Made by a program: the position numbers and the translations under genes
DNA from: a virus
Taxonomy: Duplodnaviria; Heunggongvirae; Uroviricota; Caudoviricetes
Strand: one strand, 5' to 3'
Length of the DNA: 64,000 nt
Virus record (IMG/VR): IMGVR_UViG_2833096052_000002
Coordinates: 38,750-102,749 of that record
Part shown: piece after piece, positions 10,879 through 39,333 of the stretch
Numbering within the stretch: position 1 is the first letter of the stretch
Layout of the letters: the number at the start of each line of letters is the position of its first letter
The notes under the pieces: generated by a model
What the model was told of the DNA's origin: nothing
Database searches by the model: none
Seen by the model: the letters and a program-made list of their open reading frames with translations, nothing else

Positions 10879-11399
10879 ATTGTTTACCTCCTGTTAATTT
10901 ATTCTCCTATTCCATATTTTCTCAACCATTCTTTTTTGCTTAATGTGGTTACACCACGTTTCTTTTGTTGCTTCCATACTTTAATAGCATATTCTTTTGT
11001 CATTCCTGGCACTGGATAATGTATTACTGATTTTGAAATTGTATATGGTTTTCCTATAGAAATCATCTTCAACAAATCTAATAAATTAGTCATAAATATA
11101 TTCTCCTAATCCTCAATATACTTTATTTCTTCTAGTATCGAACTTCCTATTTTCTTTGGAATGTTCATCCAATATTTCATTATTTATTCTTTTACATTTA
11201 TTTAACCCCTTGGTATATCCAATCAAATATGTCATATAAGAAAAGCAGATTGATAAAATTAACCATAACACCATAAGTATAATTATATATTTAACCATTT
11301 CTTACCTCACAATCTCACAAGGAAATCTATGTTTCTTGGTAAAAATATTACTATATATAGTGTCTATGTTTTCTATAAACACTATATATAGTATGTTAT

Positions 11400-12140
11400 T
11401 TACATTTGATACACAAAACTTGGCATTGGCTGTAATTTAAACAGATTTTTCTCATGCATTGAATCAATTTTAGCTTTTACTTTCTTACTTGGCTCAATTC
11501 CATCTCTGATATATGCATCTAATTCAGCATAAGTAAATCCAAGGTTATCTTCATCTGTCTTGCCACAAAGACCATCAGTAGGTGTCTTATCAACTAATTC
11601 TGATGGAAGCCCTAATTCACGACCAATAGCTTTAACCTCTGTTACTGTAAGCTGAGATAACGGACTAAAATCACCAGCAGCGTCACCATATCTTGTGGCG
11701 TAACCCACCCAATCTTCTGAAAGATTACACGTATTTGCAACTCGACCATTCATAGACTGACTGACTGCATATAAAGTTGTCATTCTGATACGTGCAGGAA
11801 GATTTGTGGCAGTCTGTTCAGAAATATCATATCCATTAAAAGGAAGATTATTTAATACACCACATACTGCATCTTTGATATTCACCTCAAAATTTCTGAT
11901 ATCTAAAAATTCAACAAGTTTTCTAGCCATATCAATATCCGACTGTTCTCCATTCGGCATAAGTACACCAATTACTCTATCTTTTCCAAGAGCTTCTACA
12001 CACAGAGCAGCTACAACACTTGAGTCCTTGCCGCCTGAGATACCCACAACCGCCATACAGTCTTTACCGTTCTTCTCGAAGAAATCCTTAATCCACTGAA
12101 CGCAATCATTAGTTACTTTTTTTACATCAAAATTACTCAT
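11400..12140 (-). CDS. nadE: NH3-dependent NAD+ synthetase
   Basis: PP-loop VVGISGGKDSS; downstream ARIRMTTLYA...ANTCNLSEDWVGYATRYGD aligns with NadE consensus. Confidence 0.85.
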   Translation of the reverse strand: MSNFDVKKVTNDCVQWIKDFFEKNGKDCMAVVGISGGKDSSVVAALCVEALGKDRVIGVLMPNGEQSDIDMARKLVEFLDIRNFEVNIKDAVCGVLNNLPFNGYDISEQTATNLPARIRMTTLYAVSQSMNGRVANTCNLSEDWVGYATRYGDAAGDFSPLSQLTVTEVKAIGRELGLPSELVDKTPTDGLCGKTDEDNLGFTYAELDAYIRDGIEPSKKVKAKIDSMHEKNLFKLQPMPSFVYQM

Positions 12141-12546
12141 GTTTAATCTCCTCTCTAACTCTCATAAGAATTTTTCCTAAATTGTTTTCTCCAACACCAT
12201 TCACAGTTCCCCAAATTTTATCACCCCAAGTATTACCTTCTTCGAGATGCTGATTATCAGTCTCAAGTAACTTTGCTTTGAGCTTTAAATTTTGAGTAAA
12301 TTTCGCTTTTACAATTTCGTACATAACGTTGTACTTCACATCTTCCCAATCAGATCGAAGCTGAACTCTTCTACCAAGTTTCTTTGCAGATGATGGATCT
12401 AAATTCGTGAAACATTCTCTATCTGAAAAAGTTTTTGCTGATTGAAAAGCGGCTTCATTATTCAAATATGTAAGTCCTTCATATGTAACAGGAGAAGAAT
12501 AAAAGTTGCTTAAAAAATAATATTTACCTCTAAATTCATTTATCAT
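12133..12546 (-). CDS. NADAR (DUF1768/YbiA-like) domain protein
   Basis: YFLSNFYSSPV...EAAFQSAKT...WG...GxNxLGKILMRVREE matches NADAR family signature. Confidence 0.75.
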   Translation of the reverse strand: MINEFRGKYYFLSNFYSSPVTYEGLTYLNNEAAFQSAKTFSDRECFTNLDPSSAKKLGRRVQLRSDWEDVKYNVMYEIVKAKFTQNLKLKAKLLETDNQHLEEGNTWGDKIWGTVNGVGENNLGKILMRVREEIKHE

Positions 12547-13004
12547 CCTTTGTCAAGCCTCCATAATTCAACATTGCAATCATAAAAAATATTCTCTATC
12601 ATTTGATGTACTTCCTCCCAATTTGCACCGCCACGAACACATCCAATTTTATATGGCATTGCAATACTCATATTTTCTAAAACTGCATATGATTTCAAAT
12701 TTTCAAAACATTTTCTTAAAGCATCAATATCTGTATACTGTTTTCCGTCATAGCCATATGATTTTTGTGCAAATAAATTTGCATATATTCTTGCGTCAAT
12801 ATTAGACTGAAAATATCTAACAGAACCCAATAATTGTTCAGGTGTATTAATCGAACAAAAACTATGATAATCTTTATATACTTGCACATCATAATCACGG
12901 ATTGCTTTTGCAACACCAGAATTAAAAGCACCTTTGCAATTAACCTGGTGTGCAATAATATCAGTGTTCGAAGTGAGCAAGTCTCCATCAATAATTTTAA
13001 TCAT
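12543..13004 (-). CDS. Macro domain (ADP-ribose binding/hydrolase) protein
   Basis: DIIAHQVNCKGAFNSGVAKAI resembles macro-domain nucleotide-binding motif; start overlaps upstream stop (TAATG). Confidence 0.6.
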   Translation of the reverse strand: MIKIIDGDLLTSNTDIIAHQVNCKGAFNSGVAKAIRDYDVQVYKDYHSFCSINTPEQLLGSVRYFQSNIDARIYANLFAQKSYGYDGKQYTDIDALRKCFENLKSYAVLENMSIAMPYKIGCVRGGANWEEVHQMIENIFYDCNVELWRLDKG

Positions 13005-14464
13005 TACTTACCTCCGTACATTCTGTTTCTGATATCCGCAAATGTATCTTCTCTTACTAATTCTCCATCTTTAAATACGGTAGTAAGTAAACTGTTATCA
13101 CTTATTTCAAGTAACTGATCTTGACATTTTAATTCACCGTTATCATCGAATACTCTACAACATCCTTTATGAGATTTCTTTAAGTGACTTGTATCTGTCT
13201 TAGGATCTTTAAAAATCATTAGCTTCTTACCATCAATTACTCCATATGTAGCTTTCATTGCAATGCCAAAAGTATCTCTTGTAACAACAATCATCTTGCC
13301 GTTTTCAACGATTGCAGTGAAGCAAAAAGCTCCTACACCATAAGCAATATTATTAGCTGCGAAACCACGTTTTTCTAATTCTTTCCAAATAGTTTCTACA
13401 TTAGAAAGTGTGCAACCATCACCATAAATAATACCGATATGCGGATCTAATACCTTATAACCTTTACCATTTACAGAACCACCAAAAATCTCCCATAACC
13501 TTTCAACTGTCTTAACTGAAATCTCTACAATATCACCACTATCAGGACGAATTAAGAGCTTTCCATTATGATTCATAATCTCTTCTTTACACTGTGGAAG
13601 AATATTATTTACCATATTCCAATAATCATAAGTATCTGAAACCATACTAAATGATGTATTTGGATATAACTCTGTTAAAAGTCTCTTAACAAACGTAATC
13701 TCATCTCCATCAATTGAGAAATTAGCACCCATTACAGAATGCTCAGTTGAGACAGCACCGATTCCAATACCATTATTCTTACAATCGGCATTATAATATC
13801 TATCAATATAATTAATTGCTGGAATTGTAGATGTCTTATTAAATGAAAGCAACCATGATGCTGAACATCTTGTAGCTTCATCCATACAAGACATTCCTCT
13901 CATACCAAAATCTGCACAAGCCATATTTCCAGGCAACCCGTCTGTTGTCTTGTTATACCAATAATCTGCAATCTCACGATACATATGACCGATAGTTGCA
14001 TGACAACAAGGTTTCCATAATTCTACCTGAAGAATACATTCGATCCACTGAACAAGCCAAGCAAATTTATCATCCGTATTTGTAATCTCAATACAAGGAA
14101 CACCCATAGGAACAAGTGTGCCTTCTGGCAATGCTCTAATCTCAAGTGGTAAATATCCTAATCTGTGAAGCTCTACAATTTTATCTAAATCATAGTTGTC
14201 TCTACCAATCTGTACGTCCATCGAATCTGTATAAAGAGTTAGCATCTCATCTTCCGATAAATCGAAGAAATTTTTCTGAAAATATCCCATTAAATATTCT
14301 TTGATAAATGCCTGTAATCCAAAGAAAACCATTTCATTTTGATTCTCTAACATTGATTTTCGAGGCACCCAATACGATACTAACTTAGTTAATCCCTTCG
14401 GATACATACGATCATGACACTGTTTATAAGTATCTGATAATAATAAAGCCATTGTGTTATCCAT
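13004..14464 (-). CDS. nicotinamide phosphoribosyltransferase homolog (NAMPT/NadV-like; candidate Namat of NARP1)
   Basis: About 486-aa NAMPT-family sequence (LLSDTYKQCH..., GMRGMS..., GIIYGDG...). Probable start is the ATG at 14464 with GGAGG 9 nt upstream; the ORF-track start at 14506 is an upstream extension. Confidence 0.75.
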   Translation of the reverse strand: MDNTMALLLSDTYKQCHDRMYPKGLTKLVSYWVPRKSMLENQNEMVFFGLQAFIKEYLMGYFQKNFFDLSEDEMLTLYTDSMDVQIGRDNYDLDKIVELHRLGYLPLEIRALPEGTLVPMGVPCIEITNTDDKFAWLVQWIECILQVELWKPCCHATIGHMYREIADYWYNKTTDGLPGNMACADFGMRGMSCMDEATRCSASWLLSFNKTSTIPAINYIDRYYNADCKNNGIGIGAVSTEHSVMGANFSIDGDEITFVKRLLTELYPNTSFSMVSDTYDYWNMVNNILPQCKEEIMNHNGKLLIRPDSGDIVEISVKTVERLWEIFGGSVNGKGYKVLDPHIGIIYGDGCTLSNVETIWKELEKRGFAANNIAYGVGAFCFTAIVENGKMIVVTRDTFGIAMKATYGVIDGKKLMIFKDPKTDTSHLKKSHKGCCRVFDDNGELKCQDQLLEISDNSLLTTVFKDGELVREDTFADIRNRMYGGK

Positions 14465-14468
14465 AATT

Positions 14469-15305
14469 TTAAACCTCCATAACTGTAATTTTTTCATGAT
14501 TACCATTAAACAAACTGTTTGTAGTAAATAATCTGTTCACTGTATTATTCTCCAAAGACTTGATCAATGTTCCTTTTTCTTTATCAAGAATTGAATTCTC
14601 TGTATGAGTGGCATACGCATAAATCTCAGTTACACCATGTTTCTTCAATTCTTCTGCACTATAATAAAGTGAACCGCCATATGCGATAATATCATCAATC
14701 ATTAACACAGCTTTATCCTTCAAATCAATACCATTTGTTCTAATGTCTAATCCAAGGATTTTACCAGTCTTCCAATCTCTCTTCTTTTCACCATAACAAT
14801 ACGGCAACTCAGGGAATAAATCTGAATATCTCTTAGCTGCACCTGCATCTGGGAAATAAAGTACAAGATTTCTCATACCAATCTTTGAAATAGCTTTATC
14901 AACATACTCTTTTGGATTTTCTTTTACACAATTATTGAGTAATGCAGTAGAAACATCACTATGAGCATCTAAAACATAAACTGATGAAAATCCTAACCAA
15001 TTGATAAAATCGCAAAAATACTTCAGTGTGAATACTTCATCATCATTTTTTACTCTATCCATTCGTGCATTAGGAATATATGGAAGAGACAAATAATAAT
15101 CCACATTAGTAAAAAATCTTTCAAGATGTTTCCTTACTAACATCAGATAAAACATCTCATCGTTACTCTCATAAATCCATTCAATCCAAATGCAAGGAGA
15201 CCCATCATAAGAGTCTTCCTCAATGTTGTTTATATCAATATTTACTCTTGGTGTTCCATCTGGGAACTTGTTGATTGTTACAATTTCATTATTAATTTTA
15301 ATCAT
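14469..15305 (-). CDS. ribose-phosphate pyrophosphokinase homolog (PRS-like; candidate Adps of NARP1)
   Basis: PRPP-binding loop VLMIDDIIAYGGSL and LDAHSD region typical of PRPP synthetase family; 278 aa, shorter than canonical Prs. Confidence 0.7.
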   Translation of the reverse strand: MIKINNEIVTINKFPDGTPRVNIDINNIEEDSYDGSPCIWIEWIYESNDEMFYLMLVRKHLERFFTNVDYYLSLPYIPNARMDRVKNDDEVFTLKYFCDFINWLGFSSVYVLDAHSDVSTALLNNCVKENPKEYVDKAISKIGMRNLVLYFPDAGAAKRYSDLFPELPYCYGEKKRDWKTGKILGLDIRTNGIDLKDKAVLMIDDIIAYGGSLYYSAEELKKHGVTEIYAYATHTENSILDKEKGTLIKSLENNTVNRLFTTNSLFNGNHEKITVMEV

Positions 15306-15308
15306 GTT

Positions 15309-15821
15309 TTACTCTCCAATCACTTCGATCTGACACATCTTCATAGTTGCTAATGCAGCCTTGTGGGTATCAGGTGTGACACCTGCGCAACAGCTTGCAT
15401 CTACTGTAATATCAATCTCAGGATAATTTGCCCTGATAATAAGTGCATTTGAAACCACACAGATGTCGGTGCATAATCCGCAAACCTCAACACTTTCAAA
15501 TCCTAAATCCTTCCAGTTTAACCAACCGAATGTAGGCTTATCAATCAGAATATCGTTCTCAATATCAAAATCTAACTTATCGGAAATCTGCCAACCAATA
15601 GTATTCTTTACACAGTGAGTAACAGGAAGATGCTTACCTTCATATGTTTCTAAATAATTCTCAGGATGTGTGTCTCTTGTAAAAATTACCTGCTTACCAG
15701 CATCCTTATACTCCTTAATTTTCTTTGCTACATTTGATACAATCGCCTGTGCTTCCTTTGTACCAAGTGTTCCATCAATAAAATCATTCTGCATGTCTAC
15801 AACAATTAATGTTTCTCTCAT
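15309..15821 (-). CDS. isochorismatase-family cysteine hydrolase, nicotinamidase (PncA)-like
   Basis: LIVVDMQNDF start motif and catalytic-Cys segment VCGLCTDICV. Confidence 0.7.
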   Translation of the reverse strand: MRETLIVVDMQNDFIDGTLGTKEAQAIVSNVAKKIKEYKDAGKQVIFTRDTHPENYLETYEGKHLPVTHCVKNTIGWQISDKLDFDIENDILIDKPTFGWLNWKDLGFESVEVCGLCTDICVVSNALIIRANYPEIDITVDASCCAGVTPDTHKAALATMKMCQIEVIGE

Positions 15822-15939
15822 TTTGTTACCTCTTTTCTTTATTTTTATATGTATTTATTCTCTGAAAACTCAGAAGAAAAAAATATTTCATTTTACTTTT
15901 TTGGATAATTTGGCTGATCAGCCGTGAATAGAATTGCTT

Positions 15940-16128
15940 CTATATTAGATTATTCTCTACTCGAAACTTCTTTAATTCATCTTGAATCATCTTTTGTATA
16001 TCTTCTTTATCAAAAGATATATTTGCTACTGGAATAACATTTGCATTTGGATTAACTTCACCAACAATAGCTTCATCAAATACTTTTATAAACATTTCTG
16101 CAATTTCTTTTTCATAATTGCCACACAA
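15940..16128 (-). CDS. small hypothetical protein
   Basis: ORF track. Confidence 0.3.
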   Translation of the reverse strand: MCGNYEKEIAEMFIKVFDEAIVGEVNPNANVIPVANISFDKEDIQKMIQDELKKFRVENNLI

Positions 16129-16245
16129 TCCACTACAATCTATATCTGCAATTACTCTTGAAAAAAATCTTTGAACTTATCATCTATAAAATCTCGCTCG
16201 TATTCTCTTGGTATATCAATTGTTAATTTCACCATTTCACCTCAC

Positions 16246-16452
16246 TTATTCTCTGTATGGTTCAGGTAACGGCATCCAAGCTCTCATGCCTCCATTGATT
16301 CTTCCCCAATACCATGTCCCATCATAGTATTGCCTTTGCACTTTTGTTACCATTCCTCGATTTGTGGTAACAAGTACATTTATCACTTTCTTACCTTCAT
16401 ATCTTTTATCATCTTCTGGCATTTGCCCTTCGATACATTTAATCCATTCCAA
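16246..16452 (-). CDS. small Trp-rich hypothetical protein
   Basis: ORF track. Confidence 0.35.
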   Translation of the reverse strand: MEWIKCIEGQMPEDDKRYEGKKVINVLVTTNRGMVTKVQRQYYDGTWYWGRINGGMRAWMPLPEPYRE

Positions 16453-16465
16453 TTATTCTTTCACC

Positions 16466-17206
16466 TCACATCCATTTATCAATTTCACTAAACACATTAC
16501 CTAATGAATTAACAATCATCAAATCAGTTTCACCGTATAACAACACTTGAATTTTCTCTTTATTGATAACAACCAAATGTCTACCACTAAAATATGAAAT
16601 ATAATGAGCTGCTGGATAAACTTTTAATGAAGTGCCACCAATAATCAACATTTCAGCATCTCGAATAGCTCTGATTGCTCCATTTACAGCTTCATTAGGA
16701 AGATTCTCTCCGTATAAAGTCACATCAGGTCTAATCAGCCCACCACATTCACACTTTGGAACAGCATCTTTAGTGTTAAATAAGAAATCAGAATGATATT
16801 TCATCTTACACTTACTACAATAATTTCTCTGAGTAGTTCCATGAATCTCAAAGACATTCTTACTACCAGCTTTCTGATGAAGTCCATCAATGTTCTGTGT
16901 TACAATAGCTTTCAACTTGCCTACTTCTTCCATCTTAGCAAGTACCTTATGAGTAATATTTGGCTCAATATTTCTTGTATCCATCTTCTGCCGATAGAAC
17001 TCATAGAATACTTTCGGATTGTTGTATAAGCATTCTCGACTCAAAAGATACTCTGGCTCGTATCTATCAAACTGAACGTCATGCTGATTATATAATCCAT
17101 CCTTTGAACGGAAGTCAGGAATACCACTTTCAGTTGACACACCTGCTCCACCAAAAAATACAATATTGTTCGATTCTTCTATATATTCTCTTAATTTATC
17201 GTACAT
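16466..17206 (-). CDS. Sir2-family NAD+-dependent deacylase/ADP-ribosyltransferase
   Basis: GAGVSTESGIPDFRS, TQNIDGLH, HG and CSKC...CECGG zinc ribbon. Confidence 0.8.
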   Translation of the reverse strand: MYDKLREYIEESNNIVFFGGAGVSTESGIPDFRSKDGLYNQHDVQFDRYEPEYLLSRECLYNNPKVFYEFYRQKMDTRNIEPNITHKVLAKMEEVGKLKAIVTQNIDGLHQKAGSKNVFEIHGTTQRNYCSKCKMKYHSDFLFNTKDAVPKCECGGLIRPDVTLYGENLPNEAVNGAIRAIRDAEMLIIGGTSLKVYPAAHYISYFSGRHLVVINKEKIQVLLYGETDLMIVNSLGNVFSEIDKWM

Positions 17207-17212
17207 ATTACC

Positions 17213-17470
17213 TCACTCTATCATTTCAACTTTAATCCTAAATTTTGTTGTTTCTATATGTTCGTTTTCTTGATAAGGACAATTATAATCAAAGTGCTGA
17301 TGTTTAACAGTCGCAATCAAATGAGTATCATTACTAGAAACAAATTCCGTATCTGTTTCATAAGTATCTTCAGAACCATCACCAAGTTTAGAATCTGCAC
17401 AATATATCTGATTTGCGTCTAATGCATCTTGAATAATTCTGTAAATGTCTCCTGTATTATACATAGTCAC
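17213..17470 (-). CDS. small hypothetical protein
   Basis: ORF track. Confidence 0.35.
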   Translation of the reverse strand: MTMYNTGDIYRIIQDALDANQIYCADSKLGDGSEDTYETDTEFVSSNDTHLIATVKHQHFDYNCPYQENEHIETTKFRIKVEMIE

Positions 17471-17474
17471 TCCT

Positions 17475-18863
17475 TTAATACTCTATCAAACCATCTGTAA
17501 TACCAGTCATCCAATAAATAAGATCTTCTCTATCATTTTTTAATCTTCCATCTATTACACGAGTTAAGATTTCATTGAGCCAGTACCCAACCTCTTTTCC
17601 ACTTTTAATGAGCATTGTATCCATTACATCTTTTCCATTAACTGCTAAATCCTTTAAAGAAAAACATTCATCATCCTGTAAGACTTCTTCTAAAATATAT
17701 TCGATGTTATCAATCTTCTGTAATCTTATTTCCTGATTAATGTCTGCTTGTGCTTTAATATCGGCTCTACGAACATTTAATAATCTTCTAAACTGTTCTT
17801 CTCCGATTTTATTAAGCCATCTCTTGACATATTTCTTTCCCACCTCAAAAGTAGCATCATGATAATAGACTAATTCAACAACTTTTTCTCTCGTATCATT
17901 GTCAAATCTTAATCGCTTCATTATTTTATCAGTCATATCAGCACTGACTCTTCCATGACCTTTGAAATGTCTAATACCATCCTCGCCATCTTGATAACAA
18001 TGTAGCTTTCCAATATCATGAAAAAATACAGCCAATGATGTAATCAAATCTCTTGGATTCAAGTCTTCTTCACAATCACATTCATAAGCTTGTACTGCAT
18101 GTACTGTATGATTCCATACATCATAGATGTGATATGGATTATTCTGTGGAAAATCAAACATATCTTTTATTTCAGGAATAAACAATGATAATACATCGCC
18201 ATATAAAACCATCTGTACACAAAAATCACTCGATATAGCAATTTTACAGAACTCACTATTTATCCTCTCAACGGATATATTCTCTAAATTTTGATACATC
18301 TTGTGTAAAACATAATCTGTATTTGGTTCAAGAACAAAGCTTAACTGAGAAGCGAATCTAATGGCACGTAAAATTCTTAAAGCATCTTCAGCAAATCTAT
18401 CTTCTGGTTTACCAACACACTGAATTTTGTGATATTTTATATCTTCCATTCCATTAAACGGATCTACAAGACCAACTTCATCATTGTATGCCATCGCATT
18501 AATTGTAAAATCTCTACGCTTTAAATCCTCTTCAAGACTTCGTGTAAATGCAACACTGTCAGGTCTACGACTATCTGAGTAATTACCGTCAATTCTGTAA
18601 GTGGTACATTCATATCCTTCACCGTTAATTACAATAGTGATAGTTCCATGCTGCAATCCAGTTTCAATAATTCTCTTATCCTTGAATACTTCCATCATTT
18701 CATCTGGTGTGGCAGAAGTCGTAATGTCATAATCGTGAATTGGTCTGCCAAGAATACTATCTCTCACTGCACCGCCACATAAAAATGCCTCATATCCATT
18801 ACTCTGTAAAGTATGAATAATTTCATTTGCACCAGATGGAATTTTAATTTTCAATTTCTTCAT
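17475..18863 (-). CDS. cca: tRNA nucleotidyltransferase (CCA-adding enzyme) with HD domain
   Basis: GGAVRD...DxD polymerase-beta head, RRDFTINA, and HD motif FFHDIGK. Confidence 0.8.
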   Translation of the reverse strand: MKKLKIKIPSGANEIIHTLQSNGYEAFLCGGAVRDSILGRPIHDYDITTSATPDEMMEVFKDKRIIETGLQHGTITIVINGEGYECTTYRIDGNYSDSRRPDSVAFTRSLEEDLKRRDFTINAMAYNDEVGLVDPFNGMEDIKYHKIQCVGKPEDRFAEDALRILRAIRFASQLSFVLEPNTDYVLHKMYQNLENISVERINSEFCKIAISSDFCVQMVLYGDVLSLFIPEIKDMFDFPQNNPYHIYDVWNHTVHAVQAYECDCEEDLNPRDLITSLAVFFHDIGKLHCYQDGEDGIRHFKGHGRVSADMTDKIMKRLRFDNDTREKVVELVYYHDATFEVGKKYVKRWLNKIGEEQFRRLLNVRRADIKAQADINQEIRLQKIDNIEYILEEVLQDDECFSLKDLAVNGKDVMDTMLIKSGKEVGYWLNEILTRVIDGRLKNDREDLIYWMTGITDGLIEY

Positions 18864-19806
18864 TCAAATTCACCTCAATTTTTGGTTCATCAATAAACTT
18901 TGCCAATAGTCCTTCATGGTAGAATACCTTGTCACTTTCAGTAATTTCTTCTCCCAAGAAATATCTAAGTACGAATGGCATCATATAGTTGTCTAAACAT
19001 TTGAACTCAATACTATATTCTCCATTTTCTTTGTAGATTTTTTTACAGTATCCGTCAGTACCATTGATTTTGTGGAGCGAAAATAATTCAACTCTGAATG
19101 GAATATTAGATTTTGTACTTAATCTTTCTTCAACACAATTTCTCACAAGACTTAACATGTGCAAATTACTTGCCGTTGTCATATCATAAACAATCTCATC
19201 ATTTGAAAAGAATACAATTCTCTCTTCACCAATGATGTCATATAATAACGATAATGTCTGATCCATAAGGTACTTTTCATAGGTGATATGTCTTTTAGGA
19301 TTACAATTACCAAGAATAACCTGGCGAACATATTTACTATTTGCAATATGTTCGTTATCCGTGAATTGAGAAATAAAATCTTCCCATGTATCAGTCCCAC
19401 GAAATATATTCTTATCATATTCGTGTAAAGATGAAAAATTAGCCTTTCTCATATCAATACTTATAAAAACTCTTCCAGTATTAGTTGGCTTAAATATGTC
19501 TTTATTAGATAAATTTTTATGAATCACAGTGAATTTATTCATATCTTCCGCATTAAATCTCTGATATGCTTCTGACTCCTTGATACTTGTAATAGCTGCA
19601 TCCTTTACATGATTATATTCTTCAAAATAATCCTGCTCACAATTATACCCCTGTAATTCACTTGCAAATATAATCCACTTGTCAACAGTTCCATAGAATT
19701 CATCAAAAAGCTTAATTCTATCTAAAAAATATGGCTCTTGGAATAATCTAATTGGTATATTGCAATCCTTACAGAATCTTTCTTTTGCTCTATTTGATAT
19801 TTCCAT
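18844..19806 (-). CDS. hypothetical protein (320 aa)
   Basis: ORF track. Confidence 0.45.
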   Translation of the reverse strand: MEISNRAKERFCKDCNIPIRLFQEPYFLDRIKLFDEFYGTVDKWIIFASELQGYNCEQDYFEEYNHVKDAAITSIKESEAYQRFNAEDMNKFTVIHKNLSNKDIFKPTNTGRVFISIDMRKANFSSLHEYDKNIFRGTDTWEDFISQFTDNEHIANSKYVRQVILGNCNPKRHITYEKYLMDQTLSLLYDIIGEERIVFFSNDEIVYDMTTASNLHMLSLVRNCVEERLSTKSNIPFRVELFSLHKINGTDGYCKKIYKENGEYSIEFKCLDNYMMPFVLRYFLGEEITESDKVFYHEGLLAKFIDEPKIEVNLNEEIEN

Positions 19807-20849
19807 CAGATATCTCCTTTCACAATTCTCTCATTTACATACATCTTAAATTCATTGATTTTCTTATAATTAGGTTTGTCAGGCAAAGATGTATTTTCTT
19901 TTGCATATTCAAAACGTTTTTCATATTCATTCAATAAATCATAGAACTCAGAAATAGGTTGCCTATTTTTATCTAAATATTCTCCATTTCTAATACTCAT
20001 GAGTAAATCGTGTTCATCTGATCTATAAGTGATAATCTCTTCCTTTTCAAGAATATCAATACACATCATATATAAACGAATCAGATGTGCCATATGTTTA
20101 CCAAGTTTATCATGAGCAACTGCTTTTTCATTTCGTTTGCCAAATTTACTGTAACTACTTACAATGGATTTCATTTCGTTCCACATTCCAGCCCAATCTC
20201 TTAATGGGTAATGTTTCAAATTTACATCCATAAAAATTTCACTGTCATATCCTTCCTGAACAGCTTTATCAATATACAGTTTCAAATCACTTTCATTGTA
20301 TGGATAATATCTATTTTTAAATTCATATTGAGCATTGTTAATACTTCTCAAAATATATGCTTCATTTTCTGCCTGACCAACTAACCTTGCAGCTTTGTTC
20401 TCCATGCGTCTTAACTGTGAAGACGAATAACCACCAAAAGTATGAATACAAACTTTTGATAAAAACATTTTTCTATTGTCTAAAAGTTCTCTTCCAATAT
20501 CAGACAAATGCAAATAATGTTCTGGTAGACAACCGAGTTGTTCAATTGTATTAGGATTATTCGATGTAAGAAGCTGAATCATTTTGTTAAATGAATATAC
20601 TGTGGTGTCTGTATCGGTATTTACGACCTGTTCAAAATCTGTTCCAAGTAAAATATCTGATTTGCTGTTGAGTGCAATACCTCTCACATCTAAATCAGAT
20701 CCTTCTTTATCCATTCCATATGCATGACTTCCACCAAGAGTTAAGATAATGATATTGTCACCCAAATTCTTATCTGTTCTCAGGAAGTCATACTCTTTTG
20801 ATTTTAATTTGTCCTTAATCTGTTTAATTGTCATTGTCTTAACCTCCAA
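19806..20849 (-). CDS. Pol-beta superfamily nucleotidyltransferase domain protein
   Basis: LTLGGSHAYGMDKEGSDLDVRG = GS-x(9-13)-DxD minimal NTase motif. Confidence 0.5.
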   Translation of the reverse strand: MEVKTMTIKQIKDKLKSKEYDFLRTDKNLGDNIIILTLGGSHAYGMDKEGSDLDVRGIALNSKSDILLGTDFEQVVNTDTDTTVYSFNKMIQLLTSNNPNTIEQLGCLPEHYLHLSDIGRELLDNRKMFLSKVCIHTFGGYSSSQLRRMENKAARLVGQAENEAYILRSINNAQYEFKNRYYPYNESDLKLYIDKAVQEGYDSEIFMDVNLKHYPLRDWAGMWNEMKSIVSSYSKFGKRNEKAVAHDKLGKHMAHLIRLYMMCIDILEKEEIITYRSDEHDLLMSIRNGEYLDKNRQPISEFYDLLNEYEKRFEYAKENTSLPDKPNYKKINEFKMYVNERIVKGDI

Positions 20850-25681: not shown

Positions 25682-26263
25682 CTACTCTGCATCAATTCCA
25701 TACTGATTACATAGTGCCTTTAATCCACCGTTATAGCCACTTCCTACAGCCTTAAACTTCCATTCACCATTATGTTTATAAATTTCAGCTACGACTAACG
25801 CAGTCTCGGTAGAGAAGTCTTCACTTAAATCAAAACGAATAAGCTCCTCGCCTGTCTCTTCGTCTACTACACGCACATATGCGTTTCCAACCATACCGAA
25901 GTTCTGAAGTCTACTCTCAGCATCATAAATTGTGACCGTCACAGCAAGAGTCTCATAGTCTGATGGGATTTTATCAAGTTTAATCTTAATAACCTCATCA
26001 TCTCCATCTCCCTCACCTGTACGATTATCTCCCATATGCTTTACACTCTTTGAACTATGTTCAAGATTACCATAGAAAATGAAATCCTCATCCTTGCCAA
26101 CCTTGCCATTCTCTTTTGTCATAAACACAGAGGCATCGAGATCAAAATCTGCTTCTCCATCATAATGATTAATATCCCATCCAAGTCCAACAAGAATGTT
26201 TTTTAATGATGGTCTACCCTTTGTTAAATCTACTCTCTGTCCTTTACTTAACGAAACTGACAT
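25682..26263 (-). CDS. TerD-family protein (paralog 1)
   Basis: MSVSLSKGQRVDLTK...LGWD...DFDLDASVF...GDNRTGEGDGDDEVI. Confidence 0.8.
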   Translation of the reverse strand: MSVSLSKGQRVDLTKGRPSLKNILVGLGWDINHYDGEADFDLDASVFMTKENGKVGKDEDFIFYGNLEHSSKSVKHMGDNRTGEGDGDDEVIKIKLDKIPSDYETLAVTVTIYDAESRLQNFGMVGNAYVRVVDEETGEELIRFDLSEDFSTETALVVAEIYKHNGEWKFKAVGSGYNGGLKALCNQYGIDAE

Positions 26264-26275
26264 AATTAAATCCTC

Positions 26276-26851
26276 CTACTTGTATCTTCTTATTAATTCG
26301 CTAACACTTGAATCATTTGTTCCCTGACCGATAGCGTTAAATTTCCACTCTCCGTCTTTCTTATAAACCTCTGCAAATACCATTGCTGTCTTACCAGCAT
26401 AATCATCTGAAAGATTGTATTTACAAATTTCCTTACCAGTTGACTCATCAACAAGTCTAATGTACGCATTCTTGATAAGTCCAAAATCCTGCTTTCTTGA
26501 AGTGCAATCATAGATATTTACTACAAATACAATCTTCTCAACCTTATTTGTAATATTCGCAAGGTCAACTGTAATCTGCTCATCATCGCCGTCTCCATCT
26601 CCTGTGAGGTTGTCGCCATGATGATACACACATCTATCTTCTGCTGATCTGTCACCATAATAAACACATGTACGATACTTATCATCTTTTCCTAAAATAA
26701 TTGCTGAAGCATCGCAATCAATGTTTGGCTTAGAATTAAAAAATCCTTTCTTAACAGCATCCCATCCAAGTCCTACCATAATCTTTGTAAGACCACCTGC
26801 TACTTCCTTAGATAAATTAATTTTCTGTCCTTTGACTAAATTTACTGACAT
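26276..26851 (-). CDS. TerD-family protein (paralog 2)
   Basis: MSVNLVKGQKINLSK...GLGWD...GDNLTGDGDGDDEQI. Confidence 0.8.
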   Translation of the reverse strand: MSVNLVKGQKINLSKEVAGGLTKIMVGLGWDAVKKGFFNSKPNIDCDASAIILGKDDKYRTCVYYGDRSAEDRCVYHHGDNLTGDGDGDDEQITVDLANITNKVEKIVFVVNIYDCTSRKQDFGLIKNAYIRLVDESTGKEICKYNLSDDYAGKTAMVFAEVYKKDGEWKFNAIGQGTNDSSVSELIRRYK

Positions 26852-26869
26852 ATATATTCTCCTTCCACT

Positions 26870-27484
26870 TTATAAATCCAGACCAAAATTTCTACCAATA
26901 GCAGCTAAACCACCATTGTAACCTGAACCAACTGCATTAAACTTCCATTCACCGTTCTTACGATACAACTCACCTGCAATAACACCTGTCTCTAATGAGA
27001 AATCCTCATTAAGTTCATATTTGAAAAGTTCCTCATTTGTATCAGCGTTGTATGCTCTAATGTACGAATTATCAACCATTCCGAAATTCTGTAAACGATT
27101 TTCTGCATCATAAATTGTCGCTGAGAAGCTAATCTTTGTAATATTAGATGGAATCTTATTTAACTCAACAATCATTGTCTCGTCATCGCCATCACCTACA
27201 CCTGTTCTATTATCACCAGAATAAATCAATGCTCCACTTGGATGCTGTGGCTGACCATAAAATACGAAATCTTGTTCGCCTGTTACCTTTCCTGAATCAT
27301 CGGTAAAAAATGCTGACACATCCAAATCAAAATCTGCATTACCATCGTATCTATTTGTATCCCATCCAAGACCAAATACGACTTTGTTTAAACCTGCATT
27401 GCCTTTTGTAAGGTCAATCTTCTGACCTTTAACTAAACTAATTGACATATTATTTTTCCTCCTTATTCTTGGGAAGGCTGTCAA
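26870..27484 (-). CDS. TerD-family protein (paralog 3)
   Basis: ISLVKGQKIDLTK...GLGWD...DFDLDVSAF...GDNRTGVGDGDDETM. Confidence 0.8.
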   Translation of the reverse strand: MTAFPRIRRKNNMSISLVKGQKIDLTKGNAGLNKVVFGLGWDTNRYDGNADFDLDVSAFFTDDSGKVTGEQDFVFYGQPQHPSGALIYSGDNRTGVGDGDDETMIVELNKIPSNITKISFSATIYDAENRLQNFGMVDNSYIRAYNADTNEELFKYELNEDFSLETGVIAGELYRKNGEWKFNAVGSGYNGGLAAIGRNFGLDL

Positions 27485-31434: not shown

Positions 31435-31509
31435 CTAGGCTGGTGGGACTTGAACCCACAAAACCTGCGGTCAAAGCGCAGTGCGTCTAACCAATTCCGC
31501 CACAGCCCA
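31435..31509 (-). tRNA. tRNA-Gln (anticodon UUG)
   Basis: Minus-strand cloverleaf: acceptor TGGGCTG/CAGCCTA with U1:A72 and G73 discriminator, anticodon arm CTGCG-CTTTGAC-CGCAG, T-arm GTGGG-TTCAAGT-CCCAC; CCA not encoded. Confidence 0.7.
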
Positions 31510-36630: not shown

Positions 36631-36764
36631 ATCCATCCGTTAGTGGATTAAACTATGGTAGAACTATAGCAACTACACATTCTGCTCTTACAAGGCAATA
36701 TGTATGTACAAAGAAACAAGTACCTTGCGTTCTGCACTTACATCGGGTGTGATTCAGTGCATAG

Positions 36765-36836
36765 CAGAGCTAGTTGGATTCGAACCAACGAATACAGCAG
36801 TCAAAGTGCTGTGCCTTACCGCTTGGCGATAGCCCT
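36765..36836 (-). tRNA. tRNA-Gln (anticodon UUG), second copy with different sequence
   Basis: AGGGCTA TC GCCAAGCGGTAAGGC A CAGCA-CTTTGAC-TGCTG TATTC GTTGG-TTCGAAT-CCAAC TAGCTCT G; D-arm identical to bacterial tRNA-Gln; A1:U72. Confidence 0.8.
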
Positions 36837-38340: not shown

Positions 38341-39333
38341 TTACATCTCCATCAATTTTTCTTTCATTCCAACTGCACCATTCGCATAGTTATTAACTGT
38401 TGTATTTACACTACTATGTCCAAGCTGTTGCTGCACGAATGCAAGATTTCCATTCTGATTCATTACACTAGCATAATAATGTCGCATCATATGTGGAGTA
38501 ATACCATTTCCATAATTCTCAAATACCTGTTTGATATTTCTTTCCGTTGTACGTGTGCCATTCTTATTGATAAAAACTGCTTCTGTATCTACAATATTAT
38601 TCAGTGTATTTCTGTACTCTAGCCATTCACTTAATGCTTTTAAAGCAGATCCGCTAAGATATACCGTTCTATTTTGCATTTCTCTATACACACCTTTGCC
38701 AAGAATAGTAATATATGGCATTTCTTCATCTAAATGCAAATCAGTTAAATCCAAGCCAGCAAGTTCAGATTCTCTTATTCCAGTTCCTCTTAACACACGA
38801 AAAATAGCAATATTCCTATTTCTTACTGGAATATCCTTTTTCCACATTATTTTCTCTTCCATATCATTAAGCTGTTTTTCTGTTGGGAGTTTTTTAGTTA
38901 AGTTGTTCCCAGATGGAATTCCTTTATATGTTACATCTTTAAAGAATTTATCTTTAATTTCAGTTCCCTTCACTCTACTCATATAATCCCAAAAACTGCT
39001 TATTATATGTTTTCTAGTTTCTAATGTCGTAGGTGACATTCCATTCTGCTCTTTTGTCTTTAAATATAACGTGATATCTTCTGCCATAATGTCAGTAAAA
39101 TCCGATGGTTCAATATCTGAAATATGTGTTTTATCAATAAGTTTCTCTTCAACAAACCAAGTGAGCAAATCTACAATAACACCAAGATAATTCAATGCGC
39201 CTGCTTTACTTTCTATTTTAACAGTAAAATATTTTCTCATATATATAGGAAGATTTAACTCATCCAACTTCCTATTAAGCTTTTCAGCATTTTTGTTTTG
39301 TACTTCTATCTTATAACACATATAATCGACCAC
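38341..39333 (-). CDS. int: tyrosine recombinase / phage integrase
   Basis: C-terminal catalytic box HMMRHYYAS...LGHSSVNTTVNNYAN (R..HxxR..Y family). Confidence 0.85.
   Translation of the reverse strand: MVDYMCYKIEVQNKNAEKLNRKLDELNLPIYMRKYFTVKIESKAGALNYLGVIVDLLTWFVEEKLIDKTHISDIEPSDFTDIMAEDITLYLKTKEQNGMSPTTLETRKHIISSFWDYMSRVKGTEIKDKFFKDVTYKGIPSGNNLTKKLPTEKQLNDMEEKIMWKKDIPVRNRNIAIFRVLRGTGIRESELAGLDLTDLHLDEEMPYITILGKGVYREMQNRTVYLSGSALKALSEWLEYRNTLNNIVDTEAVFINKNGTRTTERNIKQVFENYGNGITPHMMRHYYASVMNQNGNLAFVQQQLGHSSVNTTVNNYANGAVGMKEKLMEM

Follow-up and report, generated by a model that had tools for sequence, protein, structure and literature searches.

An extended NARP1-like cassette of a gut phage, predicted to rebuild NAD+ by way of nicotinate

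A 64-kb stretch of phage DNA (from IMG/VR record IMGVR_UViG_2833096052_000002; called the window here, with all coordinates counted along it) carries on its minus strand a cassette of six genes concerned with nicotinamide adenine dinucleotide (NAD+) and ADP-ribose (ADPR). Depletion of NAD+ is among the commonest strategies by which bacteria resist phages, and the cassette very probably rebuilds NAD+ to defeat defences of this kind. Positions 11349-15821 probably constitute a single six-gene operon, an extended form of the phage systems NARP1 and NARP1-AP, in a phage of about 155 kb. The transferase of the cassette, designated Namat*, has an altered pyridine pocket and is accompanied by a nicotinamidase (PncA) and an NAD+ synthetase (NadE). 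Comparison of the sequences tips the balance slightly towards a mechanism routed through nicotinate and deamido-NAD (nicotinic acid adenine dinucleotide, NaAD). Since 2024, three pathways have been reported by which phages restore NAD+. The chances are about even that the cassette represents a fourth, 'deamido-NARP1', with a new enzymatic activity, a nicotinate:ADPR-PP transferase that would make NaAD from ADPR (ADPR-PP, ADP-ribose pyrophosphate).

The region examined was the minus strand between positions 11400 and 18863. The open reading frames (ORFs) of the window were searched against the profiles of Pfam, NCBIfam and PHROG, and solved relatives were taken from the Protein Data Bank (PDB). 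The original prediction had described eight genes here, NadE, NADAR, Macro, NAMPT-like, PRS-like, PncA-like, Sir2 and CCA-adding enzyme, as one island of NAD+/ADPR metabolism. All eight ORFs are real, both in position and in strand, and each of the eight names is borne out by the profile searches. Six of them form the cassette:

11349-15821, minus strand: cassette operon of six genes (PncA, Adps, Namat*, Macro, NADAR, NadE) and a terminator
15309-15821, minus strand: PncA-type nicotinamidase, first gene of the cassette (PF00857, 4e-30)
14469-15305, minus strand: Adps, predicted PRPS-like ADP-ribose pyrophosphokinase (phrog_619, 1e-64)
13004-14464 (longest ORF from 14506), minus strand: Namat*, Namat-family transferase (phrog_448, 7e-162)
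12543-13004, minus strand: Macro-domain protein, Adpp/Poa1p-like (phrog_335 'phosphatase', 7e-39; PF01661 weak, 1e-3, below cut-off)
12133-12546, minus strand: NADAR, YbiA subfamily (PF08719, 5e-27, 96 bits; TIGR02464, 79 bits, above cut-off)
11400-12140, minus strand: NadE, NH3-dependent NAD+ synthetase, last gene of the cassette (PF02540, 1e-54; TIGR00552, 187 bits)
11349-11393, minus strand: terminator-like hairpin 6 nt past the NadE stop, with a T-run after its 19-bp stem

The six genes overlap or are separated by no more than 8 nt. A strong ribosome-binding site, AAGAGG, is located 7 nt 5' of the pncA start, and the hairpin after NadE marks the end of the operon. A promoter scan was uninformative, with 49 sites found against 60 expected from shuffled sequence.

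In NARP1 (Osterman et al. 2024; structures in PMC12774641 and PMC13586617), Adps converts ADPR and ATP to ADPR-PP, and Namat then makes NAD+ out of ADPR-PP and nicotinamide, so that NAD+-depleting defences lose their effect. Fifteen percent of NARP1 operons also carry Adpp, a Poa1p-like Macro phosphatase that turns the ADPR-1''-phosphate arising from the aRES defence into ADPR; this version, known from Vibrio phage Gary in the order Adps-Adpp-Namat, is NARP1-AP (Osterman et al., bioRxiv January 2026). Adps, Namat and Macro, three of the eight genes in the region, are thus a system already described. The proposal that these genes counter NAD+-depleting immunity is therefore well supported, as Adps and Namat make up the experimentally established NARP1 and the Macro gene matches the NARP1-AP layout.

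The window Adps is 39% identical to the validated Adps of SPβL1, whereas its score against the profile of phosphoribosyl pyrophosphate (PRPP) synthase, TIGR01251, is 90 bits, under the cut-off of 113. Its motifs ARMDR, DAHS (H115), PDAG (D153), K174-x-R-D and D204-D205 align with Arg87, His121, Asp161, Lys185 and Asp212-213 of ICP1 Adps. The PDB matches are PRPP synthases only, at about 1e-12, with no solved Adps among them. The reaction predicted from these similarities is ADPR + ATP -> ADPR-PP + AMP.

Namat* is adjacent to and co-oriented with Adps. Its longest ORF, starting at 14506, overlaps Adps by 38 nt, but the true start is probably Met15 at 14464, because database homologues are 486-488 residues long; this leaves a spacer of 4 nt after the Adps stop. 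Namat* scores 391 bits against the SPβL1 Namat structures 9W5X/9W5W and about 190 bits against human NAMPT. The clamp aromatic residue F392 of the SCH helix of SPβL1 Namat is retained as F394. The stacking residue R40 of the SCL loop aligns with M52, and the SCL is described as variable in the NARP1 paper.

The nicotinamide pocket of SPβL1 Namat is composed of F189, R192, D215, A242, R306, D13' and Y15', and D215 forms a hydrogen bond with nicotinamide (PMC12774641). In the alignment to 9W5X, Asp215 corresponds to Asp219 of human NAMPT and to Ser226 of Namat*, the surrounding residues being SFNKTSTIPA in Namat* and SFTGTDTIPA in SPβL1. Three other residues of the pocket are changed, H187 to A198, G213 to K224 and A242 to S253. 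F200, R203, R320, D25 and Y27 are kept, as are the remaining catalytic residues. Placing the Asp219 equivalent in the motif CADFGMRG, which would preserve nicotinamide specificity, was considered and rejected, as the alignment to 9W5X puts F189 and R192 there. Asp219 defines the substrate specificity of human NAMPT, and the D219S mutation 'switches the substrate affinity' (PMC7096376, PMC4919578). Namat* has the identical Asp-to-Ser change at the nicotinamide-specificity residue. However, D219S is a single substitution engineered into an enzyme that uses PRPP, whereas the window has a natural, conserved signature of four residues in an enzyme of the ADPR-PP type. The loss of a carboxylate and the gain of Lys/Arg and Ser near the C3 substituent of the base would be expected for the binding of an anionic carboxylate, not of a neutral amide. 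Namat* is accordingly predicted, from its aligned residues, to catalyze the reaction nicotinate + ADPR-PP -> NaAD.

The altered pocket goes together with PncA and NadE. Queries with a single protein gave close relatives only, and an alignment query was used to reach canonical NARP1 loci. Namat loci of the Asp/Glu type were sampled from 80 diverse IMG/VR NARP1 loci and from the SPβL1, Tsamsa, Vibrio, Alicyclobacillus and Microcystis phages. The association test was restricted to loci flanked on both sides by 2.5 kb or more, which were searched for PncA and NadE by tblastn. NadE was found in 99/99 loci with a Ser/Ala-type Namat and PncA in 97/99, compared to 0/68 for either gene in Asp/Glu-type loci. 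When hidden Markov models were applied to six-frame ORFs, neither gene was found in any of the 92 Asp-type loci. Among the loci examined, all of those associated with PncA/NadE show the Asp to Ser/Ala replacement together with the three other pocket changes, and none of the canonical NARP1 loci does.

Wider sampling extended this picture. A search of 1.84 billion cluster representatives (50% identity) was made and the nearest 150 were examined. About 52 of these combine Ser at position 242 with Ser or Ala (in one case Val) at 215; another 95 or so are of the canonical, HGDA-like kind. Seven Ser/Ala representatives, which are 41-51% identical to Namat* and differ in signature, all have Isochorismatase and NAD_synthase genes within a few genes, and usually a PRS-like gene too. 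The gene order varies among them, with NadE upstream in one, PncA on the opposite strand in another, and IS605 insertions in one. The one informative Asp-type control has Adps only; a second control, on a 1.7-kb contig, was uninformative. In a metagenome-assembled genome (MAG) of Acutalibacteraceae (locus L099), an NMNAT-like gene with the motif PFHKGH (624-1187) lies directly upstream of an S-type Namat homolog, which is followed by Macro, NadE and NADAR. Adps and PncA are absent there, but NadE still stands beside the S-type enzyme. The arrangement resembles that of NARP2, and here too the route would pass through deamidated intermediates.

The best solved relative of the window PncA is P. 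horikoshii PncA (1ILW, 4e-17), with which it shares the catalytic triad D9/K95/C121 and the metal site D50/H52/H69, so that it is predicted to convert nicotinamide to nicotinate and NH3. NadE is a single-domain protein of 246 residues without a glutaminase domain, has an SGGKDS P-loop at residue 35, and is far above the TIGR00552 cut-off of 64 bits. Its top solved relatives are 2E18 and 3FIU, and its predicted reaction is deamido-NAD + NH3 + ATP -> NAD+. NadE of any kind is present in just 51 of 50,697 GenBank phage records. The idea that the main role of PncA is to relieve the inhibition of a phage Sir2 by nicotinamide was rejected, as Sir2 is found in 3/80 relatives compared to 79/80 for PncA.

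These counts come from ORFs clustered from 80 IMG/VR loci, kept out of 191 close copies, in which Namat is 72-99% identical. The gene order PncA-Adps-Namat-[slot]-NadE is invariant in the 80 relatives; PncA, Adps and Namat are each detected in 79 and NadE in 77. The inclusion of PncA and NadE in the resynthesis set has thus proved correct, for they are the most conserved partners of Adps and Namat. The same four-gene core occurs in 19 more divergent loci of gut genomes and MAGs, in a phage fragment from human feces (MT835544), and in the complete genome of phAss-1 and in its clade. The Namat of phAss-1 is 32% identical to Namat* and, at 39%, closer to that of SPβL1. Only 2 of the 2,089 GenBank phage records that matched a chimeric four-protein query, MT835544 and phAss-1, contain all four core genes together. 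Roughly 200 related loci were compared in all; the PncA-Adps-Namat-NadE core is invariant in over 100 of them, and unrelated lineages have it too.

The alleles of the cassette are shuffled. Among loci L002-L081 with 99%-identical Namat, the identity of Adps is either 66% or 98%, that of NadE either 64% or 85%, and that of PncA 68-98%, which indicates that cassette variants recombine often.

The slot between Namat and NadE is occupied in the window by Macro and NADAR. Macro adjoins Namat* and is 35% identical to a 'phosphatase' encoded between the PRS and NAMPT genes of Vibrio phage 184E37-3b (tblastn 1e-16; pairwise BLASTP 1.5e-25). The nearest solved structures are BT1257, DarG, TARG1 and, as a weak match, yeast Poa1p (6LFT). 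The best NCBIfam match is DarG (2e-12), and the Lys of the window motif FAQK aligns with that of the DarG motif FPTK, this Lys being the catalytic residue in DarG and TARG1. Macro is predicted by sequence likeness to produce ADPR from ADPR-1''-phosphate (or O-acetyl-ADPR). It is more likely to act on small molecules than to strip ADP-ribose from macromolecules, because it belongs to the Poa1p/Adpp-like phosphatase family, which feeds ADPR into NARP1.

Members of the NADAR family differ in a residue of the last strand, which is Glu in the YbiA type, Asp in the DarT1-linked BC4488 type and His in the T4 gp30.3 type. The window NADAR matches E. coli YbiA (2B3W, 2e-15), and the subfamily-defining Glu in HLEEG aligns with that of YbiA KLVE. 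It is of neither the DarT1-linked nor the gp30.3 type, and no DarT gene is nearby in the window. Hydrolysis of guanine-ADPr in vitro has been published for members of this family, whereas small N-glycosidic derivatives of ADPR were proposed as substrates in an earlier survey. The window protein is predicted to be an N-glycosidase acting on an ADP-ribose conjugate, and by analogy it might open N-glycosidic ADPR signals as RyDEP does with 2'/3'cADPR (cyclic ADPR). The earlier notion that Macro and NADAR reverse ADP-ribosylation survives in part: a role on macromolecules is possible, but the Macro is more probably a phosphatase of small molecules, like Poa1p and Adpp, and the NADAR is of the YbiA type.

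In the 80 relatives the slot contains Macro with NADAR in 29 cases, Macro alone in 20, a HAD-like DxDxT phosphatase of about 140 residues in 22, and nothing in 3. Overall, Macro occurs in 52 and NADAR in 31, and NADAR is never without Macro in this clade. The HAD-like protein, which has no Pfam match, was observed in the slot at loci L035, L037, L038, L041-L043, L051-L066, L082 and L108-L112. In P0101 it is fused to Namat; P0114/P0087, from a cluster of 2,406 sequences, have a fusion of Namat with another HAD-like domain. About 14 of the 80 canonical NARP1 loci have the small HAD protein next to them, and it may stand in for the Adpp phosphatase without being homologous to it. Because HAD replaces Macro in the slot and because Namat-HAD fusions exist, the slot enzyme would be a phosphatase supplying the pathway with ADPR.

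In the proposed mechanism, the NADase effectors of the host would split NAD+ into nicotinamide and ADPR or a derivative of it. Macro, and perhaps NADAR, would trim derivatives such as ADPR-1''-phosphate to ADPR, which Adps would then pyrophosphorylate to ADPR-PP. PncA would deamidate nicotinamide to nicotinate with the release of NH3, and Namat* would couple the nicotinate to ADPR-PP, giving NaAD directly. Finally, NadE would amidate NaAD to NAD+ at the expense of one ATP, with the ammonia released by PncA serving as its co-substrate.

The cassette resembles NARP1 in having a PRPS-like Adps next to a NAMPT-like Namat, in the preserved catalytic motifs of Adps, and in its presumed purpose, namely the rebuilding of NAD+ from the products of NADase defences. 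It differs in the replacement of Asp215 by Ser and of H187/G213/A242 by A/K/S, and in the flanking PncA and NadE, which are absent from canonical NARP1 (0/92). The predicted base is nicotinate and the predicted product NaAD in the window, whereas NARP1 produces NAD+. A Poa1p-like Macro gene inside the operon is shared with NARP1-AP, the window Macro having been likened to it through the protein of Vibrio phage 184E37-3b, whose three genes are laid out as in Gary. The order in the window is Adps-Namat-Macro instead of Adps-Macro-Namat, NADAR, PncA and NadE are added, and sister phages of the window have HAD-like phosphatases in place of Macro, some of them fused to Namat. NARP2 (the NAMPT NadV and the NMNAT NatV of Vibrio phage KVP40) and NARP3 (PnuC and NadR of Bas30) are likewise phage systems for NAD+ resynthesis against NAD+-depleting immunity. 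Their routes, however, lead through nicotinamide mononucleotide (NMN) or nicotinamide riboside, and involve no ADPR, nicotinamidase or NAD synthetase. The bacterial Preiss-Handler pathway (PncA-PncB-NadD-NadE) also begins with the deamidation of nicotinamide by PncA and ends with the amidation of NaAD by NadE. Its PncB (PRPP) and NadD (ATP) steps would be replaced in the window by Adps and Namat* acting on ADPR, with nicotinate joining a preformed ADP-ribose skeleton in a single transfer.

In the library searched, no paper was found that links NadE, nicotinamidase, nicotinate or NaAD to NARP1 or Namat, and neither NadE nor PncA is mentioned in the papers on NARP1, NARP1-AP, RyDEP and NARP3. 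According to a 2022 survey of viral NAD/ADPr systems, the NAD-synthesis genes of phages are NadV, NadM and NadR only. The suggestion of an undescribed extended island therefore needs to be divided: its core, NARP1/NARP1-AP, had been described, while the partnership with PncA and NadE is absent from the papers searched. What is new is the conserved PncA-Adps-Namat*-NadE cassette with its re-tooled pyridine pocket, and PncA and NadE as obligate partners of NARP1; the cassette is best read as a variant of NARP1 that would run through nicotinate and NaAD.

The carrier is probably an abundant temperate phage of about 155 kb that infects gut Lachnospiraceae. Many products of the window, among them an integrase and a sigma-like factor, match phage-specific PHROG families, and a 748-residue protein is 62% identical to a protein of Bacillus phages of about 160 kb. 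Close copies of the window Namat occur on 191 viral contigs of IMG/VR; the contigs of the 80 loci kept reach 171 kb, and single 90%-identity clusters of the window Namat hold more than 2,000 sequences. These findings support the original statement that the block resides in a phage. The closest copies in GTDB belong to MAGs of gut Lachnospiraceae, Roseburia and Clostridia. Copies of the cassette also lie within scaffolds of cultured isolates, those of Lachnospiraceae bacterium A4 (792 kb) and Ruminococcus sp. AM36-2AA (499 kb), as loci L089 and L092. Together with the integrase of the window, these copies within large scaffolds suggest the temperate lifestyle and the candidate hosts. A megablast search of the region against GenBank phages gave zero matches, so that only searches at the protein level were informative. 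The window is AT-rich, with a G+C content of 30-37%, and all ORFs of at least 150 residues are on the minus strand, save two that overlap minus-strand ORFs.

The genes upstream of the cassette, together with the integrase, are as follows:

15940-16128, minus strand: small ORF of 62 residues (25/80 relatives)
16246-16452, minus strand: small ORF of 68 residues, DUF551 (15/80 relatives)
16466-17206, minus strand: Sir2/CobB-type deacylase with a Cys4 zinc ribbon (NF001752, 306 bits, cut-off 221)
17213-17470, minus strand: small ORF of 85 residues (2/80 relatives)
17475-18863, minus strand: CCA-adding enzyme with an HD domain (NF009814, 322 bits, cut-off 290)
18844-19806, minus strand: 320-residue protein between RlaP and the CCA-adding enzyme (zero Pfam, PHROG or PDB matches)
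19806-20849, minus strand: RlaP-like nucleotidyltransferase (PF10127, 2e-20)
38341-39333, minus strand: tyrosine integrase

Three small ORFs, not two as had been thought, interrupt the block. Sir2 has the His of EIHG and the CxxC...CxC cysteines, and its closest solved relative is the Thermotoga deacetylase Sir2Tm (1YC5, 3e-45); by sequence it is a sirtuin of the housekeeping deacetylase type. The CCA-adding enzyme consists of a PolyA_pol head, a tRNA_NucTran2_2 domain and an HD domain; it is a tRNA nucleotidyltransferase and not an enzyme of NAD or ADP-ribose, so that the claim that every recognizable product is related to NAD+/ADP-ribose does not hold. It belongs with the adjacent RlaP. The two genes and that of the 320-residue protein are also adjacent in loci L033, L034, L036 and L078, and among the 80 relatives the CCA-adding enzyme is present in 28, RlaP in 23 and the 320-residue protein in 11. 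The trio (17475-20849) is presumably a module for tRNA/RNA repair directed against host defence. In the same relatives the regions upstream of PncA and downstream of NadE are hypervariable and contain DNA methyltransferases, homing endonucleases and small ORFs. Sir2 is placed outside the unit because only 3 of the 80 relatives carry it; Sir2 and the trio are separate, strain-variable cargo beyond the conserved cassette. The eight genes are consequently not one unit.

Several other explanations of the cassette have to be considered. The most serious, although unlikely, is that the window encodes a canonical NARP1-AP in which Namat* uses nicotinamide, while PncA and NadE boost the Preiss-Handler pathway of the host (PncB, NadD) as a second route independent of ADPR. 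None of the genes is out of the ordinary for its family, some residual NAMPT activity is known for Namat, and a backup route is plausible in view of the published discussion that NARP1 fails when the cleavage product is not ADPR. This explanation, however, leaves unaccounted for the pocket changes that are found in every PncA/NadE-associated locus examined and the absence of both genes from all 92 canonical loci, and PncA would compete with Namat for nicotinamide. It is improbable that the phage runs a Preiss-Handler pathway on PRPP, in which the PRS-like protein would be a true PRPP synthase, Namat* would make nicotinic acid mononucleotide (NaMN), the host NadD and then NadE would complete the synthesis, and ADPR would take no part. 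The pocket change is compatible with nicotinate in this case too, Namat retains PRPP-dependent activity, and in L099 the partners of the S-type enzyme are an NMNAT-like gene and NadE, in the absence of Adps. Nevertheless, the PRS-like protein groups with Adps by its PHROG match and its identity to SPβL1 Adps and stays below the PRPP-synthase cut-off. The score of Namat* against Namat is double that against NAMPT, one clamp aromatic that NAMPT lacks is retained in it, and genes that process ADPR (Macro, NADAR, HAD) lie inside the operon, the HAD even being fused to Namat.

The remaining two explanations bear on the extent and the location of the cassette. That all eight genes form one co-selected anti-defence island, in which Macro and NADAR serve mainly to free DNA or protein of ADP-ribose, as against DarT, is very improbable. 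The co-directional, tightly packed genes speak for such an island, as do the DarG likeness of Macro in its best NCBIfam match and its FAQK Lys, the removal of ADP-ribose from guanine by NADAR members in vitro, and the product of Sir2, O-acetyl-ADPR, which is a known substrate of macrodomains. It is contradicted by the rarity of Sir2 and of the CCA-adding enzyme, both located in the hypervariable flank and the latter paired with RlaP. In addition, HAD-like phosphatases fill the Macro slot, which suggests a phosphatase role, and the NADAR is of the YbiA type and not DarT1-linked. An ordinary bacterial operon for NAD salvage that is not borne by a phage has next to no likelihood. Copies do exist in the Lachnospiraceae bacterium A4 and Ruminococcus sp. 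AM36-2AA scaffolds, and the Ser/Ala cluster P0248 lies amid bacterial-looking genes. Against this stand the copies on viral contigs, the phage families and the integrase of the window, and the presence of the cassette in phAss-1, and the bacterial copies are compatible with integrated prophages.

A number of points weigh against the route through nicotinate and NaAD. It would cost the phage one extra ATP to remove the amide and then add it again. Possible benefits of the detour are an irreversible, ATP-driven last step, an advantage in hosts that rapidly deamidate nicotinamide anyway, or an intermediate that resists NADases. The substrate choice of Namat* is deduced from gene co-occurrence and the alignment of four residues. 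A hydrogen bond between Ser and an amide is still possible, so that Namat* may use nicotinamide or both bases. The position of the second clamp aromatic, Tyr396, falls in an insertion of 9-10 residues in Namat*. The papers that cite NAMPT D219S give a switch of substrate affinity without its direction; in the 2006 work of Khan, Tao and Tong it is reported to be towards nicotinic acid. The loci are phylogenetically related, and a neighbor-joining tree leaves unsettled whether the Ser/Ala type is monophyletic, with one origin, or has several; the association of signature and genes may rest on few independent events. Finally, the presence of the Francisella NMN synthetase 3FIU among the relatives of NadE means that the substrate of NadE could be NaMN instead of NaAD.

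If the nicotinate/NaAD route is correct, it adds new enzyme chemistry to the NAMPT/Namat family and explains why a whole subfamily of NAMPT-like phage genes is always accompanied by genes for a nicotinamidase and an NAD synthetase. Deamido-NARP1 would then be widespread in phages of the human gut and in some bacteria, with at least 50 clusters at 50% identity and thousands of sequences, and the abundant phages of gut Clostridia would solve the loss of NAD+ differently from the model phages of E. coli, Bacillus and Vibrio. The different ADPR derivatives made by defences would be funneled into the substrate of the pathway by interchangeable enzymes (Macro, two kinds of HAD phosphatase, and NADAR), and the slot after Namat would be a natural catalog of enzymes that turn immune-derived derivatives of ADP-ribose to ADPR. 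For annotation, position 215 of SPβL1 tells the two types apart, being Asp in one and Ser/Ala in the other, the latter with Ser at 242.

Further observations were made at related loci. In 18 IMG/VR loci (e.g. L060:8530-9162) an ORF of about 210 residues lies between PncA and Adps; it has a CxxxCxxC motif and a weak radical-SAM match (PF04055, 2e-4). A Tad2-like gene (PF11195, the family of the anti-Thoeris sponge) is located two genes downstream of a Ser/Ala-type cassette (L210/L211:10217-10510), which fits an anti-defence neighborhood. On a 73-kb contig (L214, JGI 3300042643), a Ser/Ala-type PncA-PRS-like-Namat-NadE cluster is found amid genes for a diacylglycerol kinase, an acyltransferase, a Ser/Thr kinase and PP2C, and judging by these neighbors the cassette may also exist as a chromosomal pathway of bacteria. 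The distant carrier phAss-1 is TAG-recoded (code 15) and has a suppressor tRNA. The ORFs examined in the window show no sign of recoding. Other features of the window are these:

25682-27484, minus strand: three tandem paralogs of about 190-204 residues each, all phrog_5698
31435-31509 and 36764-36836, minus strand: two tRNA-Gln(UUG) genes, about 5 kb apart

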